A stretch of DNA of 53,626 nt from Candidatus Portnoybacteria bacterium. Lineage in GTDB: Bacteria; Patescibacteriota; Minisyncoccia; Portnoybacterales; GWB1-42-6. Position 1 is the first letter of the stretch, and each line of letters opens with the position of its first letter. Location of the stretch: NCBI GenBank assembly GCA_028688325.1, contig JAQTYI010000001.1:246994-300619 (forward strand), read 5' to 3'. A model generated the notes under the pieces. It saw only the letters and a list, made by a program, of their open reading frames with translations. It was not told where the DNA came from and ran no database searches. The position numbers and the translations under genes are program-made. Positions 38,915-52,351 of the stretch are shown piece by piece.

Positions 38915-39895
38915 ATGAATACAAAAAATCACTCGCGAAAATTAAGCTTGCTCGTGGCTGTTTTTGTATTGCTAACCGGCATTTTTATAGGCGGTTATTT
39001 GGTTTTAAAAAGCGGCCGGGTTTCCGCCGGCCAGATAGACAATATCTTAAACGCCGGTTCAACCAACCCTGAAATTTGCAACCCCGATCCCGGCGATTCC
39101 AACAAGGACTCAGACAACGACGGTTTAAAGGACTGGCAGGAAATCCAGATTTATCAATCAAACCCCTGCAAAGCGGATACGGATGGCGACGGCTATTTGG
39201 ACGGCGAAGAAATCGCGTCCGGCTACGACCCGATTAAAAAAGCGCCCGGCGACGAATTGCCCGGCACCTTGCCAAAGGGCCCCCGGCCCTTGCCGGCCAA
39301 CCTGACCAGCGCGTTAAGTTCTATGCTGGCCCAGCAGATCGCCGCCGGAAAAATTGACTCATTTGACCAGCAAGGGCAGCTTCTTTCTTCCTACGAACTG
39401 GAAAAATATCCCGCCATACAACAAGCCGTCCAGCAGATCATATCGGCAGAGGACCAGCTGTTTGCGCCCGACCCAATCGATGACGGACAAATAAAAACCA
39501 CGGCCGACAACAGCGAACGATCAATCCGGTCTTATGCCCAAAAGATGCATGATGGATTAAGCTCAGGGAAAAAACCAATTTCTTCGAAAACCGAAGCGCA
39601 AATACTTCTTGATGCGATAAAAAGCAATGATTTTTCCGAAATGGCAGCCCAGTTTCAGTCGTATCAAAGATCTTATCAAGTTTTAAAAGAGCTGACCGTA
39701 CCAAGCGACCTTCTGCTTTTGCATACTCAAATAATGGGTGTTTTTTCCAGCTTGACGAAAATCTACCAAGCGATTGAAAATATTGAATCCGATCCGCTGA
39801 AGACCAATCTGGCACTGCAGAAATACACGGTGTTGATGGAAGAGACCATTCAGTGGGCTAAGGATTTTGAAATCACAACTAAAAATCACTTCTAA
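38915..39895 (+). CDS. Membrane-anchored protein with thrombospondin-type-3-like Ca-binding repeats
   Basis: N-terminal TM helix. DSDNDGLKDWQE and DTDGDGYLDGEE (DxDxDG) repeats. The remainder is helical and unrecognised. Confidence 0.55.
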   Translation: MNTKNHSRKLSLLVAVFVLLTGIFIGGYLVLKSGRVSAGQIDNILNAGSTNPEICNPDPGDSNKDSDNDGLKDWQEIQIYQSNPCKADTDGDGYLDGEEIASGYDPIKKAPGDELPGTLPKGPRPLPANLTSALSSMLAQQIAAGKIDSFDQQGQLLSSYELEKYPAIQQAVQQIISAEDQLFAPDPIDDGQIKTTADNSERSIRSYAQKMHDGLSSGKKPISSKTEAQILLDAIKSNDFSEMAAQFQSYQRSYQVLKELTVPSDLLLLHTQIMGVFSSLTKIYQAIENIESDPLKTNLALQKYTVLMEETIQWAKDFEITTKNHF

Positions 39896-39919
39896 AACAA
39901 AAAAGTAAAAATCAAAAGA

Positions 39920-41932
39920 ATGTTTGGCTTCTTATCACAACCCGCCACAAAAAAAATAGCCGGACTGATAATGGTTTCGTTGTTTCTTTTCGAATTGGTC
40001 GTTGGCGGAGTTATATTGCCTTATATGGAAAACCAGCGGGCGCAAGCTATTTTTGCCGACTACATCGGCGGATTCGCCGGCATCGGAAACTTCTTTGAAG
40101 GGTTGGCGGCTGACGCTGCTGAAATGGCGTCTGACGCCTGGGAAGGGGCGGGCGTCTGGGCGGAAACATATCTTAAAATCGATGAAGGCGTGCAAAAAGC
40201 AATTAAAGAGGCCCTGATAGTGGCCTTCACCGCTTTCAAAAAAAAGCTGCTGGATATGATGGCCGATCAAATTATCACCTGGATAAATGGCGGCGGCAAG
40301 CCGGCATTTGTCACCGACTGGCGGGCATTTCTTTCAAAGGCGGTCAATGATGTCGGGGGGAATTTTGTTTCCGAATATCTTGGCGCGGGATTTTTATGCA
40401 AGAATATTTCTCCGCAGGTGCAACTAATGCTGGCCAAGCCCCCGACTTTTGACACGGCCGCCGCTTGCACGCTGTCCGATATAGGCGCCAATATCCAAAA
40501 TTTCTACAACAATTTCAACTCGGGCGGCTGGAAGGGCTGGCTAACGATTTCCGAAACCCAAAATAATATTTACGGAATGTATTTTTACGCCCAGGATCAG
40601 AAGTGGGGCGCGGAACAGCTGGCCGCCATGACCGGCTCGCAAGCCGCCCAGTCGGCAGCCGGATTTTTGGGAGACCAAGTTTGTTTGCGATACTACAAGA
40701 TGAGCTCAGGCGGCAAACCCATAGATTCGCGATACCCCAATCCCAAAGACGCGCCCAAAAAGGGCGAGGCCCCCGCTCCCTTTACCGATGCCAACTGCAC
40801 CGAATGGTATACCAGAACCCCGGGAAAAGTCGCGGCCGATTCGCTATCTAAAATTACTAACGGTCAATATGACTGGCTGCTTCTGTCAAAAGAATACGGC
40901 GAATATGTTGTTGCTATCGCGGACGCGGTCATAAACCGCACCATCAAAGAAGGGGTATTGCTGTTAATGCCCGCCCAGACGGATACCTCCGGCGGCGGTT
41001 TTACCATTGACTATTCAACTGTTATGGCCGGCGTCGCCGACTACAAGAATGCGGCCGAAAATAAACCCTACATAGAACAGATAATTCCGCAAGAAAAATT
41101 GCTCAAAGAAAACCTGAGAAAAATCATAACAGAATACCAAACCAATCTAAATATTTTAAATCAAATAAGGACGGTGCAAAGCGACGCATTTAACACGCTT
41201 AAAGAAATATCCCAAAATAGTTGCTCTCTTCCCGGCGGGGCCATTCAGCAAAACTTGGGAACGCAAACAACGAGCAACTGCGGCGCCAATATTTGCCCCT
41301 GCACAAGCAAAACCGTTGAAACAATAAAGGTGAACGCGCCAAGCTTTGGTGAAGCAACTTTTCAGGCAACAACTCTTGAAGAGTTTTCTTTCAATACAGA
41401 CGACCGCTCCTGCTCGGATGTGACAACGACTAAAACCGCTTCCACCACATTAGGATCTCTGTCGACCGACGCGGATTTTTCCGCCATCAATGCCGCCATC
41501 TCCAAAATTCAAAGCCAAACAAGCCAGATAGACGCGGCCGTAGCTGATATGCAAAATTACCAAAAAACTATTGAGGATTACATTGCGGCTTATGACGCGA
41601 CTCAAGGCCGTCTCGGCTCTCAAGCGGGAAATGCAAAAGTCGCCACCAGCACGATCAGCGCCATGTATGATGCCAAACAAAAAGCCATTGATTCAACAAA
41701 AAATTTGCTTGGCTCATCGTCAACAAAAATTAAAGACCTGGTGACGGAAGTGATGGACGCGTCTAAAAATACGGCGAATCAAAAGATAGATTTGATACAA
41801 AAACGCGGCAACGATACGAGCAATGCGGGCATGGGCTGTTCATACAACACCGGATACTATAAGACCTTGTGCGATATTCAAGCCATAAAAACATCGTGGG
41901 ATTCCGCGCTGGCTTCTTGCCGCGCCGATTAA
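39920..41932 (+). CDS. Large membrane-anchored hypothetical protein of the T4SS-like locus
   Basis: 670 aa, one N-terminal TM helix, Cys-containing globular middle region, C-terminal coiled-coil-like region. No motif recognised. Confidence 0.5.
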   Translation: MFGFLSQPATKKIAGLIMVSLFLFELVVGGVILPYMENQRAQAIFADYIGGFAGIGNFFEGLAADAAEMASDAWEGAGVWAETYLKIDEGVQKAIKEALIVAFTAFKKKLLDMMADQIITWINGGGKPAFVTDWRAFLSKAVNDVGGNFVSEYLGAGFLCKNISPQVQLMLAKPPTFDTAAACTLSDIGANIQNFYNNFNSGGWKGWLTISETQNNIYGMYFYAQDQKWGAEQLAAMTGSQAAQSAAGFLGDQVCLRYYKMSSGGKPIDSRYPNPKDAPKKGEAPAPFTDANCTEWYTRTPGKVAADSLSKITNGQYDWLLLSKEYGEYVVAIADAVINRTIKEGVLLLMPAQTDTSGGGFTIDYSTVMAGVADYKNAAENKPYIEQIIPQEKLLKENLRKIITEYQTNLNILNQIRTVQSDAFNTLKEISQNSCSLPGGAIQQNLGTQTTSNCGANICPCTSKTVETIKVNAPSFGEATFQATTLEEFSFNTDDRSCSDVTTTKTASTTLGSLSTDADFSAINAAISKIQSQTSQIDAAVADMQNYQKTIEDYIAAYDATQGRLGSQAGNAKVATSTISAMYDAKQKAIDSTKNLLGSSSTKIKDLVTEVMDASKNTANQKIDLIQKRGNDTSNAGMGCSYNTGYYKTLCDIQAIKTSWDSALASCRAD

Positions 41933-51153: not shown

Positions 51154-51169
51154 TAAATAATATCCGCGT

Positions 51170-52351
51170 ATGAACACAAAAAAAATTCTCATTATTGCTT
51201 CTGTTTTACTGGCTCTATCGCTGGCTACACTGTTGGTTTATAATTTCTTTTTTAAGGCGCCAACCGGAACTGCTCCCCGGGAAACCGGCGTCGGAGCGCT
51301 GCCGAGTGGAAGCGCCGGGAAGGGAAGCGGCGGATCTTCTTTGCCCGGAGACACCAATGGAACCCAAGGCCAGGCGGCCTTGAAAATAAGGCCTGTCAGC
51401 AAAGAGCCGGTTCTGTCGCCGACCATCGGCGCCGACGGCCAGACGGTAAAATATTACACCCTCTCCAACGGCAATATTTTTGAGTCGGATTTTTTGGGCG
51501 GCAACCTTAAAAAAATATCCTCGGTCACCCTAAACGGCCTGCTTAAAGCGCTCTGGTCGCCGGATAAAAACGGGGTTATCGGCGTTTTTTCCGATAACAA
51601 TAAAATCAAAAAATATTTTTACAATTATATAAACAACCAGTCGTCGCTCCTCAATGAAAAAATCGGCTATGCGGCTTTCTCGCCGGACAGCAAGAAAATC
51701 TCTTACCAGTTCATCGACAATCAAAGCGGCCAAAATAACATCAGCACGGCAAATCCGGATGGCTCAAATTATAAGACCATCTTCAAAACCCGACTGGATA
51801 ATCTCATCGTTGAGTGGCCTGTCAAAGAAAAAATTTCCTTGCGCCAACCGCCAAGCGGCCTGGCCCAGGGCATACTTTATGCCATAAATTCCGAGACAGG
51901 GGATTTCACCAAGGTGCTGAGCGATATTTTCGGGCTCAGCGCGAAGTGGTCGCCCAAGGCCGACAAGATCCTTTATTCCTCAACGGACGACAGAGGAAAA
52001 AATCCCAAATTAACCCTATCCGACAGCACCGGCGCCAACTTTAAAAACCTAAAGCTGGCCGGCCTGGCTGATAAATGCGTCTGGGGCAAAGACGACCGGA
52101 CAATTTTTTGCGCCCTGCCCCAGGAGATATCAGAGAACGCCGTCTGGCCCGATGACTATTATAAAGGACTCGTCATTTTAGAGGATGATTTTTACAAGAT
52201 TAACCTGGAGACGGACACCAAAACAAAAATCCTGGGCTCTTCCGACCAAGGAAGCTATGACGCCCAGGAGCTGTTCCTCTCACCCAAAGAAGATTACCTG
52301 TTTTTCGTCAATAAGCGCGATGGCCTGCTTTATAGCATAAAAACACAATAA
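51170..52351 (+). CDS. Membrane-anchored TolB-like beta-propeller (PD40 repeat) protein
   Basis: N-terminal TM helix. Repeats such as FSPDSKKISYQF...NPDGSNYKTIF and WSPKADKILYSS. Confidence 0.6.
   Translation: MNTKKILIIASVLLALSLATLLVYNFFFKAPTGTAPRETGVGALPSGSAGKGSGGSSLPGDTNGTQGQAALKIRPVSKEPVLSPTIGADGQTVKYYTLSNGNIFESDFLGGNLKKISSVTLNGLLKALWSPDKNGVIGVFSDNNKIKKYFYNYINNQSSLLNEKIGYAAFSPDSKKISYQFIDNQSGQNNISTANPDGSNYKTIFKTRLDNLIVEWPVKEKISLRQPPSGLAQGILYAINSETGDFTKVLSDIFGLSAKWSPKADKILYSSTDDRGKNPKLTLSDSTGANFKNLKLAGLADKCVWGKDDRTIFCALPQEISENAVWPDDYYKGLVILEDDFYKINLETDTKTKILGSSDQGSYDAQELFLSPKEDYLFFVNKRDGLLYSIKTQ

Follow-up and report, generated by a model that had tools for sequence, protein, structure and literature searches.

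The 12-gene operon at 38915-52351 (+ strand) of the window, that is, the whole 53,626-nt stretch of Candidatus Portnoybacteria DNA analysed here, is probably a vertically inherited, origin-proximal Parcubacteria/Paceibacteria T4SS of the Patescibacteria clade, which derives from the conjugation machinery of monoderms (MPF-FATA) and has been repurposed for host-cell interaction. The initial annotation had described the locus as a chromosomal T4SS-like apparatus that is not conjugative and includes several unassignable envelope proteins, and this description is supported by the core genes, the flanks, and the conserved gene order. The features of the operon are as follows.

38878..38903, + strand: promoter-like site, TTGACA + TATAAT (read from the sequence)
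38915..39895, + strand: ORF1, 326 aa, TSP3 Ca-binding-repeat protein (Pfam TSP3_bac, 1.2e-12)
39920..41932, + strand: ORF2, 670 aa, membrane-anchored, Cys-rich extracytoplasmic protein (one N-terminal TM segment, 12 Cys)
42002..44548, + strand: ORF3, 848 aa, extended VirB6/TrbL-like polytopic membrane protein (topology and orthologue matches)
44557..45576, + strand: ORF4, 339 aa, soluble Pro-rich protein (11.8% Pro, no TM segment)
45653..45940, + strand: ORF5, 95 aa, two-TM protein of the PrgI/VirB3 type (Pfam PrgI at 5.4e-8, exceeding the gathering score)
45965..46597, + strand: ORF6, 210 aa, TrsD/TraC-like protein (NCBIfam TrsD/TraD, 1.6e-7)
46607..48424, + strand: ORF7, 605 aa, VirB4 ATPase (Pfam P-loop_TraG, 1.4e-27)
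48429..48809, + strand: ORF8, 126 aa, small membrane protein with 2-3 TM segments (TM scan)
48821..49561, + strand: ORF9, 246 aa, signal/anchor segment and two Ig/PKD-like beta-sandwich repeats (alignment)
49567..50472, + strand: ORF10, 301 aa, VirB2-like T4SS pilin core and 180-aa Cys-rich C-terminal domain (Pfam matches of the family)
49663..49925, + strand: 263-nt repeat copy 1, pilin core of ORF10 (repeat search, 100% identical to 50581-50843)
50479..51153, + strand: ORF11, 224 aa, second VirB2-like pilin with a different Cys-rich (CXCXC-like) tail (core identical to that of ORF10)
50581..50843, + strand: 263-nt repeat copy 2, pilin core of ORF11 (repeat search)
51170..52351, + strand: ORF12, 393 aa, final gene of the operon, TolB-like beta-propeller protein with a membrane anchor (NCBIfam TolB propeller, 5.1e-9; 35.6 bits, cut-off 343)

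All twelve ORFs were present on the + strand with a spacing of 4-76 nt, as expected from the earlier report of co-directional, closely packed ORFs, and the gene-by-gene descriptions given there stand, except for that of a "split" VirB4, which is amended below. The operon encodes a core comprising a VirB4 ATPase, a separate TrsD N-domain homologue, PrgI/VirB3, an extended VirB6, and two VirB2-type pilins. The further conserved products are exported or membrane-anchored (ORF1, 2, 8, 9, and 12) or soluble (ORF4), and signal or TM segments were found in nine of the twelve products. Upstream of ORF1, a perfect TTGACA (38878-38883) and the previously noted TATAAT (38898-38903), also perfect, form a putative promoter with a 14-nt spacer, and the ATG of ORF1 lies 11 nt past the -10 box. 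The site was absent from the list of a consensus promoter scan, which required a 16-18 nt spacer, because its spacer is short.

For ORF7, further Pfam matches were observed to AAA_10, DUF87, and CagE_TrbE_VirB, together with a match to pCF10 PrgJ (5e-65). The protein is 66-95% identical to Parcubacteria/Portnoybacteria proteins of ~600 aa and ~35% identical to VirB4 proteins of the Gram-positive CD1110 family encoded on plasmids of Bacillota and Actinomycetota. Its closest VirB4 relatives were all from Patescibacteria, were ~600 aa long, and were accompanied by a separate TrsD. ORF6 also matches the N-termini of the CD1110 and Mbov_0397 VirB4 models (NCBIfam), and has a precomputed Pfam match to PF26593 (TraC-like); judging from these sequence matches, it is the separate-gene equivalent of the VirB4 N-terminal domain. 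Among 80 related loci, the trsD gene was present in 76, in a random frame relative to virB4 (20/28/28), indicating that the two are separate genes. Therefore, the "split VirB4" does consist of two genes, but not through disruption of one, as TrsD is conserved as a gene of its own. PrgI was directly upstream of TrsD in 74 of the 80 loci.

For ORF3, the TM scan revealed ~7-8 TM segments followed by a 430-aa charged cytoplasmic tail (33% K/R/D/E). Pfam TrbL/VirB6 was matched by 7/41 of its orthologues (best 1.3e-7), and the assignment to VirB6 was made by family because the window protein itself falls below the Pfam thresholds and gave no match. The similarity to pCF10 PrgH was weak by hhalign (P=0.005). 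ORF3 was syntenic in 56 related loci.

ORF10 and ORF11 each possess a signal peptide, two TM helices, and 11 Cys. Of the 41 members of their family, 38 matched PF18895 (T4SS_pilin) and 7 matched TrbC, and both proteins are called pilins by family because their own Pfam scores are sub-threshold; the weak matches of ORF11 were to CXCXC (0.007) and TrbC (0.048). Despite the identical 263-nt core, the Cys-rich tails of the two proteins are unrelated. In the AF2 model of ORF10, helices H45-77 and H82-112 form a hairpin, and the C-terminal domain has a pLDDT of 80-94. Foldseek matched the model to an archaeal conjugation pilin (TM-score 0.65) and to the Sonic hedgehog N-domain (E=0.037, probability 0.89), and residues H221, H226, D238, H296, and H298 are invariant. 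The modelled C-terminal domain may thus adopt a LAS-type zinc-peptidase fold, an assignment for which Pfam, hhalign, and a viral fold library gave no support. In relatives, the pilin at this operon position reaches 615 aa and often carries a fused peptidoglycan hydrolase; the NlpC/P60, VanY/M15, and YkuD domains scored above the Pfam gathering thresholds and occurred in proteins of 358-582 aa.

The accessory proteins are likewise conserved. ORF1 consists, in order, of an N-terminal TM/signal segment (TM residues 12-30), TSP3 repeats, and a conserved helical C-terminal domain, and its profile search of the PDB returned Ca-repeat matches only. In 36 related loci it opens the operon, and in Kaiserbacteria-type loci it is duplicated. 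ORF2 showed no match in Pfam, NCBIfam, or the PDB, and belongs to an unannotated family of 5,774 representative clusters (E<=1e-3) that is syntenic in 42 related loci. Its conserved N-terminal domain carries the pattern W-x-GG-x-G-x-P-x-F-V...C...GGW...NN...TPG and was modelled by AF2 with low confidence, and residues 370-670 reached a pLDDT of ~80-95. The C-terminal half has a helix/beta-sheet/helix arrangement. The best Foldseek match of the protein, TolC/OprM (E>=0.018), was not significant. The C-terminal domains vary between orthologues (F5/8-C, Fn3, and CHB_HEX_C, with PT-HINT in a single case).

For ORF4, the alignment revealed a conserved N-terminal helical domain of ~100 aa, a disordered linker rich in Pro, and a (D)PYRE motif. 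In most orthologues the near-invariant DPYRE is C-terminal, whereas the window copy has the motif internally (NYREP). A positional orthologue was found in 62 related loci, and the 35-member family had no Pfam or PDB match. ORF8 is patchily conserved, with 24 loci encoding it at the same position, and its 22-member family had no Pfam match. The repeats of ORF9 are ~100 aa long in the alignment with the motif W..NG...SG.GK, and gave weak matches to Ig_3/PKD and Hoc/Ig; the orthologues, present in 66 related loci, have three repeats, of which the window copy lacks the first. ORF12, present in 59 related loci, has a TM segment at residues 6-24, and its profile matched TolB in the PDB (6.3e-6). Its gene overlaps a convergent Wzy_C gene by 44 nt.

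Neither ORF1, 2, 4, 8, 9, and 12 nor their families matched VirB5, VirB8, VirB9, or VirB10 in Pfam, and no match to pCF10 PrgD/E/F/G/K/L was obtained. Topology, synteny, and weak fold hints are the only basis for their putative roles. The initial annotation had regarded half of the parts as uncharacterised, and about half of the conserved parts are still without an assigned role.

The order from ORF1 to ORF12, including the proteins of unassigned function, was repeated across the 80 related loci, with per-gene counts of 24-80 loci, many of the loci being cut by contig ends; it was most complete in those free of such cuts. The loci come from Kaiser-, Nomura-, Azam-, Giovannoni-, Zambryski-, Taylor-, Niyogi-, and Sungiibacteria and others, so that the proposed comparison of gene neighbourhoods across CPR genomes showed the operon order to be kept in many Paceibacteria lineages. 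KsgA was found upstream in 36/80 and UvrD in 29/80. In the window, KsgA and UvrD also form the upstream flank, and rnpA-rpmH-dnaA-dnaN lies ~6 kb downstream; therefore, the operon is located ~6 kb from the replication origin. Its GC content is not anomalous. Other features of the window relevant to DNA transfer are as follows.

10831-20103: T4P cluster
22486-23532, - strand: Xer-like tyrosine recombinase (Phage_int_SAM_1 and Phage_integrase domains, XerC/D-type)
31176-32717: ComM

The window had been reported to lack a relaxase, VirD4, and VirB11, and none of these (relaxase, T4CP/VirD4, VirB11) was detected in the 38 kb preceding the operon or the 10 kb following it, extending the absence across the next 10 kb downstream. 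The reported lack of an adjacent integrase also holds; the recombinase lies 15 kb upstream, with PNPase, ComM, UvrD, and KsgA between it and the operon. The type IV pilus and ComM claimed for the same window were confirmed as a full T4P cluster and a comM gene, 6-19 kb from the operon.

The survey by Quinonero-Coronel et al. (2025, PMC12102498) describes the same architecture, without relaxase and close to dnaA/ksgA, across Patescibacteria. The operon shares with its Paceibacteria type VirB4 with a separate TrsD, PrgI/VirB3, VirB6, PF18895-type pilins near virB4, the lack of a nearby relaxase or T4CP, and a chromosomal position near dnaA, rnpA, rpmH, and ksgA. By these features, the locus is a member of the Patescibacteria-clade T4SS, with no essential difference from it. 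ORF1, 2, 4, 8, 9, and 12, the pilin C-terminal domains, and the pilin-hydrolase fusions are not described in the abstract and results of that survey.

The T4SS of Southlakia epibionticum (SEML1_0005-0019; PMC10633639) shares VirB4, a TrsD-position protein, PrgI, large VirB6-like proteins, and PF18895 pilins, and also lacks a coupling protein and relaxase. Conversely, it has an array of six short pilins (103-185 aa) in place of two long, Cys-rich-tailed pilins. It also encodes two VirB6-like proteins, an NTF2-like (VirB8-like) protein, and, as a separate product, a lysozyme/glucosaminidase; sequence searches of the window operon revealed neither a lysozyme nor an NTF2-like protein. The window operon adds the TSP3, ORF2, Ig-repeat, and TolB-like propeller proteins, and equivalents of ORF1/2/4/9/12 were not recognised in the Saccharimonadia locus. 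Epibiotic growth of Southlakia requires its T4SS and pilin genes (Wang et al. 2023, PMC10633639); these data come from a different class, Saccharimonadia, and not from Paceibacteria.

With the MPF-FATA systems (pGO1/pSK41 Trs, pCF10 Prg/Pcf), the operon shares a CD1110-type VirB4, PrgI, and, as in pGO1, a separately encoded TrsD-like N-domain. Its core (two pilins, PrgI, TrsD, and VirB4) also occurs on a Pontibacillus megaplasmid (pilins 1e-18, TrsD 2e-48). The operon differs from MPF-FATA in its chromosomal housekeeping location, in the presence of pilins, and in lacking the T4CP (PcfC), relaxase (PcfG), and adhesins (PrgB); PrgD/E/F/G/K/L/M homologues were not detectable in it by HMM or hhalign. 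ORF10 and ORF11 resemble VirB2/TrbC conjugative pilins in their signal peptide, two hydrophobic helices with a short loop, and family-level PF18895/PF04956 matches, but their predicted extracellular C-terminal domains, which classical VirB2 pilins lack, bring them to 224-301 aa (up to 615 aa in relatives).

It is unlikely that the pilin-like proteins are instead two-TM anchors for wall enzymes or adhesive domains at the channel, substituting for VirB1 in a pilus-less, Gram-positive-type translocator of effectors or surface proteins. In VirB2/TraA pili both termini face outward, which counts against such anchors, and a C-terminal domain on a pilin is therefore sterically conceivable. No separate VirB1-like gene was found in the operon, and the orthologous "pilins" carry hydrolase domains and reach up to 615 aa, a large size for a subunit that polymerises. 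However, PF18895/TrbC is matched by the pilin core, whose model is similar to a conjugation pilin of solved structure. The anchor reading would fit Gram-positive T4SSs, in which pili are usually absent and a membrane-anchored hydrolase (PrgK) is required (PMC12102498), whereas short-pilin arrays are essential in Saccharimonadia (PMC10633639).

A ComB-like T4SS that, together with the T4P and ComM, imports DNA from the host or the environment, either as a source of nucleotides or for transformation, is distinctly improbable. ComB-type systems also lack a relaxase and T4CP, which favours this reading, as does the presence of a full T4P cluster and ComM in the same window. However, these genes are 6-19 kb away, ComM was found in just 7/80 related loci, and ComB-specific components were not detected. 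ABY1-class T4SS loci adjoin comF, recG, and radA (PMC12102498), but competence is already explained by the T4P, and in Southlakia comEC deletion ends competence and not viability, comEC, unlike the T4SS, not being essential for epibiotic growth (PMC12857230). Therefore, the essential role of the T4SS is not ComEC-linked uptake. It is very hard to reconcile the locus with an ordinary ICE whose relaxase, coupling protein, and integrase are elsewhere or too divergent to recognise. VirB4, TrsD, and PrgI do descend from conjugative MPF-FATA systems, and VirD4 homologues are far from virB4 in many Patescibacteria (PMC12102498). Nevertheless, the 38 kb upstream and 10 kb downstream hold no relaxase or T4CP, the GC content is unremarkable, and the operon lies between KsgA/UvrD and rnpA-rpmH-dnaA-dnaN, a context shared by many other genomes. 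The tyrosine recombinase 15 kb upstream would fit an ICE, but it is of the XerC/D type with housekeeping genes intervening, and the same survey reports relaxases in only 103 Patescibacteria genomes.

In the preferred reading of a host-interaction T4SS, VirB4/TrsD would dock on PrgI and VirB6 and pull pilin from the membrane, and the extracted pilin would be assembled into a short predicted pilus or stalk with the C-terminal domains facing outward. These domains, here Cys-rich, could act on the organism's own or the host's peptidoglycan, or serve in host binding. The wall-spanning or surface part, which replaces VirB7/9/10 or PrgK/PrgL, would be formed by ORF2 and the other anchored proteins (Ca-binding, Ig-like, and propeller). 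The assembled structure may attach the cell to its host and allow proteins or small molecules required for epibiotic growth to be exchanged.

The non-conjugative, host-interaction reading is already known from PMC10633639 and PMC12102498, and is not new. The present analysis adds the gene order across 80 loci, the size of the ORF2 family, the DPYRE motif, the pilin-hydrolase fusions, and the identical pilin core with unrelated tails to a system that was described in 2023-2025, the T4SS of the ultrasmall CPR bacteria, which is thought to work on host cells.

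Twelve ORFs on the + strand (95–848 aa), spaced 4–76 nt apart, occupy positions 38915–52351 of the window, all of them co-directional and tightly packed as described in the initial annotation. The 5' neighbour (37313–38815) is divergent, and the 3' neighbour (52308–53621, Wzy_C) runs convergently, sharing 44 nt with ORF12; the twelve genes thus constitute a single natural transcription unit. The 99-nt gap before the operon contains a perfect TTGACA (38878–38883) and a perfect TATAAT (38898–38903) with a 14-nt spacer, and 11 nt separate the −10 box from the ATG of ORF1. This site is absent from the listing of a consensus scan that demands a 16–18-nt spacer; thus, the TATAAT hexamer annotated at 38898 is present, and its function as a promoter is a prediction. 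A transcript started from these hexamers would be a nearly leaderless mRNA without a Shine-Dalgarno sequence.

Related loci were collected by a scan with a VirB4 alignment, using one genome per species. This yielded 80 loci with flanks of up to 10 kb; the lineages represented include Kaiser-, Nomura-, Azam-, Giovannoni-, Zambryski-, Taylor-, Niyogi-, Sungii-, Morani- and Portnoybacteria. All ORFs in these loci were searched with iterated HMMs of each window protein, giving the following counts.

Genes of the operon, with start position (or coordinates), strand, product and number of the 80 related loci carrying the gene; the counts are lower bounds, because contig ends cut many loci
38915, + strand: ORF1, protein with Ca-binding repeats; 36 loci
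39920, + strand: ORF2, anchored protein of a large family; 42 loci
42002, + strand: ORF3, extended VirB6, assigned at the family level; 56 loci
44557–45576, + strand: ORF4, protein with a Pro-rich linker; 62 loci
45653, + strand: ORF5, PrgI; 74 loci
45965, + strand: ORF6, TrsD; 76 loci
46607, + strand: ORF7, VirB4; 80 loci
48429, + strand: ORF8, membrane protein; 24 loci
48821–49561, + strand: ORF9, protein with Ig/PKD-like repeats; 66 loci
49567 and 50479, + strand: ORF10 and ORF11, pilins, assigned at the family level; 66 loci
51170, + strand: ORF12, TolB-type propeller protein; 59 loci

The order recovered in the 80 loci was ORF1-2-3-4-PrgI-TrsD-VirB4-(ORF8)-ORF9-pilin-ORF12, so that the neighbourhood, whose conservation across CPR genomes the initial annotation had left to be checked, is kept. 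In Kaiserbacteria-type loci, ORF1 is duplicated and the propeller gene lies ahead of the pilin. KsgA is encoded upstream in 36 of the 80 loci and UvrD in 29. These results indicate that the "unknown" genes are stable parts of a vertically inherited operon, and thus conserved core parts rather than passengers.

Among the core translocon genes, ORF7 encodes VirB4 (P-loop_TraG, 1.4e-27, with additional matches to AAA_10, DUF87 and CagE_TrbE_VirB). Its best 120 homologues are all from Patescibacteria (66–95% identity), and its best plasmid relatives are VirB4 proteins of the CD1110 family, at about 35% identity. ORF5 matches PrgI (5.4e-8, exceeding the Pfam threshold) and has two TM segments in the hydropathy scan, which found none in ORF4, ORF6 or ORF7. 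ORF6 belongs to the NCBIfam TrsD/TraD family (1.6e-7; Pfam PF26593) and also matches the N-terminal ~130 residues of CD1110/Mbov_0397-type VirB4. ORF6 and ORF7 (window 45965–46607) are in the same frame, with one TAA stop and 9 nt between them, and had been regarded as a split VirB4. A frameshift or readthrough was rejected, however, because TrsD is separate from virB4 in 76 of the 80 loci with a random relative frame (20/28/28), and because the VirB4 relatives from Parcubacteria/Portnoybacteria metagenome-assembled genomes are all about 600 aa long. These results indicate that TrsD is a conserved separate gene and that the "split" is ancestral, not a lesion; the frame shared by ORF6 and ORF7 is probably a coincidence rather than programmed readthrough.

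For ORF3, the hydropathy scan predicted about 7–8 TM segments followed by a 430-aa tail, 33% of which is charged, and a Pfam TrbL/VirB6 match was obtained for 7 of 41 orthologues (best, 1.3e-7). ORF3 is therefore assigned, at the family level and with its predicted polytopic topology, as an extended VirB6, in agreement with the VirB6/TrbL-like protein with a long charged tail proposed earlier.

VirB2/TrbC pilins are small proteins with a cleavable signal peptide and a hairpin of two hydrophobic helices, which polymerise into a pilus. ORF10 and ORF11 each have a signal peptide and two TM segments in the hydropathy scan; at 224–301 aa, they carry extra C-terminal domains beyond the pilin core. 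The window copies have no Pfam match of their own at E ≤ 0.1 and are tied to the pilin family by phmmer (65 loci at E ≤ 1e-3), in which PF18895 (T4SS_pilin) is matched by 38 of 41 members and TrbC/VirB2 by 7. The two TrbC/VirB2-like pilins with Cys-rich tails of the initial annotation are thus borne out at the family level. A stretch of 263 nt encoding the pilin core is 100% identical between the two genes (49663–49925 and 50581–50843). The two proteins differ in signal peptide and in Cys-rich C-terminal domain; neither tail is related to the other or to any tail in the 80 loci. This pattern, one core joined to two alternative tails, suggests that the genes were recently duplicated or underwent gene conversion.

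In the related loci, the pilin position is often occupied by a single gene fused in the same ORF to a peptidoglycan-active C-terminal domain. The fusions carry the T4SS_pilin core, and the fused hydrolase domains score above the Pfam gathering thresholds.

Pilin–hydrolase fusions in individual related loci (L-numbers), with coordinates within each locus; domains by Pfam
L073:12765-14078, L051:12821-13909, L041:12114-13187 and L053:12859-14604: pilin + NlpC/P60
L070:12834-14072 and L077:12816-14108: pilin + VanY
L074:12751-14163: pilin + Peptidase_M15_4
L060:7688-8890: pilin + YkuD

The pilin position is thus a hotspot of fusions to cell-wall hydrolases. The abstract and results of a 2025 survey of Patescibacteria T4SS (Quinonero-Coronel et al., 2025, PMC12102498) contain no description of such fusions, and they report that VirB1-type matches are associated with virB4 mainly in Paceibacteria, an association for which the fusions may account.

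The structure of ORF10 was predicted from a 10-sequence alignment, the tail having only 10 relatives among 5.8 billion clusters. The model (mean pLDDT 75) contains a helical hairpin (H45–77, H82–112), which resembles an archaeal conjugation pilin (TM 0.65, Foldseek), and a well-predicted C-domain; among PDB structures, the Sonic hedgehog N-domain matches this C-domain best (E = 0.037, probability 0.89). The Sonic hedgehog N-domain has the LAS zinc-peptidase fold, a group that includes VanY/M15 and lysostaphin and has a His/Asp/His zinc triad (SxHxxGxAxD ... HxH). The ORF10 tail contains the motifs SCHKQGTA-x5-GD and GGHFH, and H226, D238, H296 and H298 are invariant. However, the C-domain had no Pfam match, hhalign against the M15-type tails of the orthologues gave a probability of 0.1%, and the viral fold library returned no endolysin match. 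The model therefore suggests only tentatively that the C-domain is a LAS-type zinc peptidase.

As for the accessory proteins, the hydropathy scan predicted one N-terminal anchor or signal peptide each in ORF1, ORF2, ORF9 and ORF12. ORF1, the Ca-binding-repeat protein annotated first in the operon, contains bacterial TSP3 repeats (1.2e-12). ORF2 has no relative in Pfam, NCBIfam or the PDB, and belongs to a very large family lacking annotation: when 1.84 billion cluster representatives (clusters at 50% identity) were searched with its profile, 5,774 relatives were obtained at E ≤ 1e-3, 3,296 of them at E ≤ 1e-30. Some orthologues carry extra F5/8-C, Fn3 or CHB_HEX_C domains, and one relative (P0165, among the family representatives P0155–P0299) carries a pretoxin-HINT domain at its C-terminus, a feature of polymorphic toxins. 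The ORF2 model was built on a 24-sequence alignment and has a mean pLDDT of 63. Its conserved N-domain is of low confidence, whereas residues 370–670 (pLDDT about 80–95) form four long beta-strands flanked by long helices. Foldseek against the PDB returned nothing at E ≤ 0.001; the top matches, to TolC/OprM-type channel proteins, had E values of 0.02–0.3 and were judged not significant.

Members of the ORF4 family, which has no relatives in Pfam or the PDB, share a conserved N-terminal helical domain of ~100 aa, followed by a Pro-rich linker and, at the C-terminus, a DPYRE motif that is near-invariant in the family alignment. Orthologues end in DPYRE(P) after a disordered linker; the window copy has NYREP followed by about 35 further residues. 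The motif may serve for docking or as a signal for export. ORF8 has two or three TM segments in the hydropathy scan, and its family members have no relative in Pfam. Orthologues of ORF9 contain three ~100-aa repeats with the signature W..NG...SG.GK in the family alignment and weak Ig/PKD/Hoc matches; the window copy has two, the first repeat being missing relative to most orthologues.

ORF12, annotated as a TolB-like beta-propeller protein, indeed has a TolB-type propeller match (5e-9), and its family profile matches solved TolB propellers in the PDB at 6e-6. TolB of the Tol-Pal system has an N-terminal alpha/beta domain, is encoded in the Tol-Pal operon and resides in the diderm periplasm. 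In ORF12, the propeller blades alone align, the score is 35.6 bits against an equivalog cut-off of 343, and there are no tol or pal neighbours. By these profile comparisons, the fold is TolB-like and orthology to TolB was rejected.

Relatives of VirB5/8/9/10 type, which would have turned the unknown ORFs into standard T4SS components, were found neither by Pfam and NCBIfam searches of the window proteins nor by Pfam searches of the family members of ORF2, 3, 4, 8, 9 and 10/11, nor by PDB profile searches of the ORF1, 2, 3, 4, 9, 10 and 12 families. In addition, pCF10 PrgD, E, F, G, K, L and M showed no resemblance to the unknown families of the operon by HMM and hhalign. The identification of these ORFs with VirB5/8/9/10 or PrgD–M was therefore rejected. 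No VirB8, NTF2 or hydrolase Pfam match was found in the operon; structure-level comparison for VirB8/VirB1-like subunits covered ORF2 and ORF10. A LysM-LysM-M23 peptidase gene 5 kb upstream (32793–33941, − strand) is a possible VirB1 substitute, but homologues were found near virB4 in no more than 4 of the 80 loci, and it was left out of the system.

The surroundings of the operon consist largely of conserved housekeeping genes. Upstream, the window encodes KsgA, UvrD, the LysM-M23 peptidase, ComM, DksA, PNPase and an NYN protein, and further upstream a Xer-like tyrosine recombinase with a DUF559 endonuclease, a DEAD helicase, a T4P cluster, UppS, IF-2 and others. The T4P cluster (9323–20103), which like ComM had been noted in the same window, is complete, with PilB, PilC, several N-methyl pilins, a 583-aa PilX-like protein, PilM and probable PilN and PilO, and a histidine kinase and response regulator pair precedes its genes. 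A 10-kb stretch mostly beyond the 3' end of the window (L081:11139-21182, from GCA_028710785.1, contig JAQTTM010000001.1, 788,852 bp) contains, downstream of ORF12, two Wzy_C genes, a polysaccharide flippase gene, jag, yidC, yidD, rnpA and rpmH, then dnaA, dnaN, dciA and a PBP gene. The distance from the operon end to dnaA is about 6 kb, so that the operon likely lies about 6 kb from the replication origin.

Over the window and this 10-kb stretch, about 63 kb, no gene for a relaxase, a coupling protein or VirB11 was detected. Relaxase domains were absent by Pfam from window ORFs of at least 90 aa and from the called genes downstream, and a VirB11 domain was absent from all ORFs of both. The sole T4SS-DNA_transf signal was a P-loop match (0.077) inside VirB4, with no VirD4/TcpA coupling protein elsewhere. 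An oriT is recognisable only with its relaxase. The only recombinase in the window is of the XerC/D type (Phage_int_SAM_1 + Phage_integrase) and adjoins a DUF559/Vsr-like endonuclease gene (pair at 22051–23532, − strand), 15 kb upstream among housekeeping genes. The claimed lack of relaxase, VirD4 and VirB11 in the window thus stands, as does that of an integrase adjoining the operon, whereas the window itself does contain the Xer-like recombinase; on the downstream side, no relaxase, VirD4 or integrase follows just outside.

These findings were compared with known systems. According to the abstract and results of the 2025 survey (PMC12102498), Patescibacteria have a monophyletic VirB4 clade related to MPF-FATA; TrsD is the most frequent companion of VirB4, together with PrgI/VirB3, VirB6 and VirB2-like pilins; relaxases are near-absent and coupling proteins rarely close to virB4; and the loci lie close to dnaA, dnaN, rnpA, rpmH and ksgA. 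The window operon shows every one of these features: by identity comparison its VirB4 is closest to Patescibacteria and CD1110/MPF-FATA-related, a separate TrsD gene lies 9 nt upstream of virB4, PrgI and family-level VirB6 and pilins are present, no relaxase or coupling protein is encoded beside virB4, and the locus is chromosomal, near dnaA, rnpA, rpmH and ksgA. The system is thus of a kind already published, and the operon is a further example, clean and complete, for Paceibacteria. In Southlakia, Tn-seq showed that growth on the host requires the T4SS and its pilin array (Wang et al., 2023, PMC10633639); this requirement for epibiotic growth is known for Southlakia alone. The Southlakia locus differs in accessory content: its pilins are short, and it encodes a lysozyme and an NTF2-like protein. 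The set of ORF1, 2, 4, 9 and 12 thus appears specific to Paceibacteria-type loci. In the HMM and hhalign comparison with the minimised Gram-positive T4SS of pCF10 (Prg/Pcf), only VirB4 matches (PrgJ, 5e-65), and no VirB8-like (PrgL/TraM, NTF2 fold) or VirB1-like (PrgK) subunit was detected. A core of pilin-pilin-...-PrgI-TrsD-VirB4-hydrolase is shared between the CPR loci and a Pontibacillus sp. megaplasmid (NZ_CP062975.1, 351801–361354), which, judged from gene content, is in line with a monoderm origin of the system. The genes there, in an order similar to that of the CPR core, encode two pilin-like proteins, a 779-aa protein, PrgI, TrsD, VirB4 and a 1050-aa DD-metalloendopeptidase, with flagellar and chemotaxis genes around them; the host belongs to Bacillota and the plasmid is typed non-mobilizable.

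The analysis establishes which genes the operon contains, the topologies of their products, their conservation, their genomic context and the lack of DNA-processing genes nearby, and the chromosomal, non-conjugative T4SS-like apparatus first proposed is real and was read correctly. We consider it likely that the operon encodes a host-interaction T4SS, in which VirB4/TrsD on a PrgI/VirB6 platform would build a short pilus or stalk from the pilin, the pilin tails outside the cell and the anchored TSP3, ORF2, Ig-repeat and propeller proteins would form the wall-spanning, host-contacting part, and the whole would support attachment to and exchange with the host. Far less confidence attaches to any specific substrate. 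It is conceivable, albeit doubtful, that the Paceibacteria pilin is modular, with a polymerising two-helix core and an exchangeable extracellular C-terminal wall enzyme or adhesin, so that the machine would build an enzyme-decorated pilus or stalk that cuts the host wall; the cassette would be NlpC/P60, VanY/M15 or YkuD in the relatives and, here, two Cys-rich domains, one possibly LAS-like, behind the identical 263-nt core.

A pilus-less translocator, in which the "pilins" would serve as anchors for wall enzymes, seems improbable to us. A ComB-like DNA-uptake machine is a still weaker candidate, since comEC is dispensable in Southlakia (2025 FEMS review, PMC12857230), which argues against a role in DNA uptake. 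A cryptic conjugative element or ICE was rejected and appears extremely unlikely: neither a relaxase nor a coupling protein nor an integrase adjoining the operon was detected in the window or the 10 kb beyond it, the core-gene flanks are conserved, and the GC content of the operon (0.45–0.50) matches that of the rest of the window.

The remaining interest of the system lies in its modular pilins, in the great size of the ORF2 family and in those conserved components that have no assigned role. If the modular arrangement were true, it would represent a pilus type new to description and a concrete mechanism by which epibionts breach and feed on hosts. A large part of bacterial diversity belongs to the Patescibacteria, whose members appear to live on other cells. 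Their T4SS, which has two envelopes to cross, is, to our knowledge, the only one without which the bacterium encoding it cannot survive. The conserved parts and the pilin fusions offer structural and genetic studies concrete starting points for learning how ultrasmall epibionts interact with their hosts.
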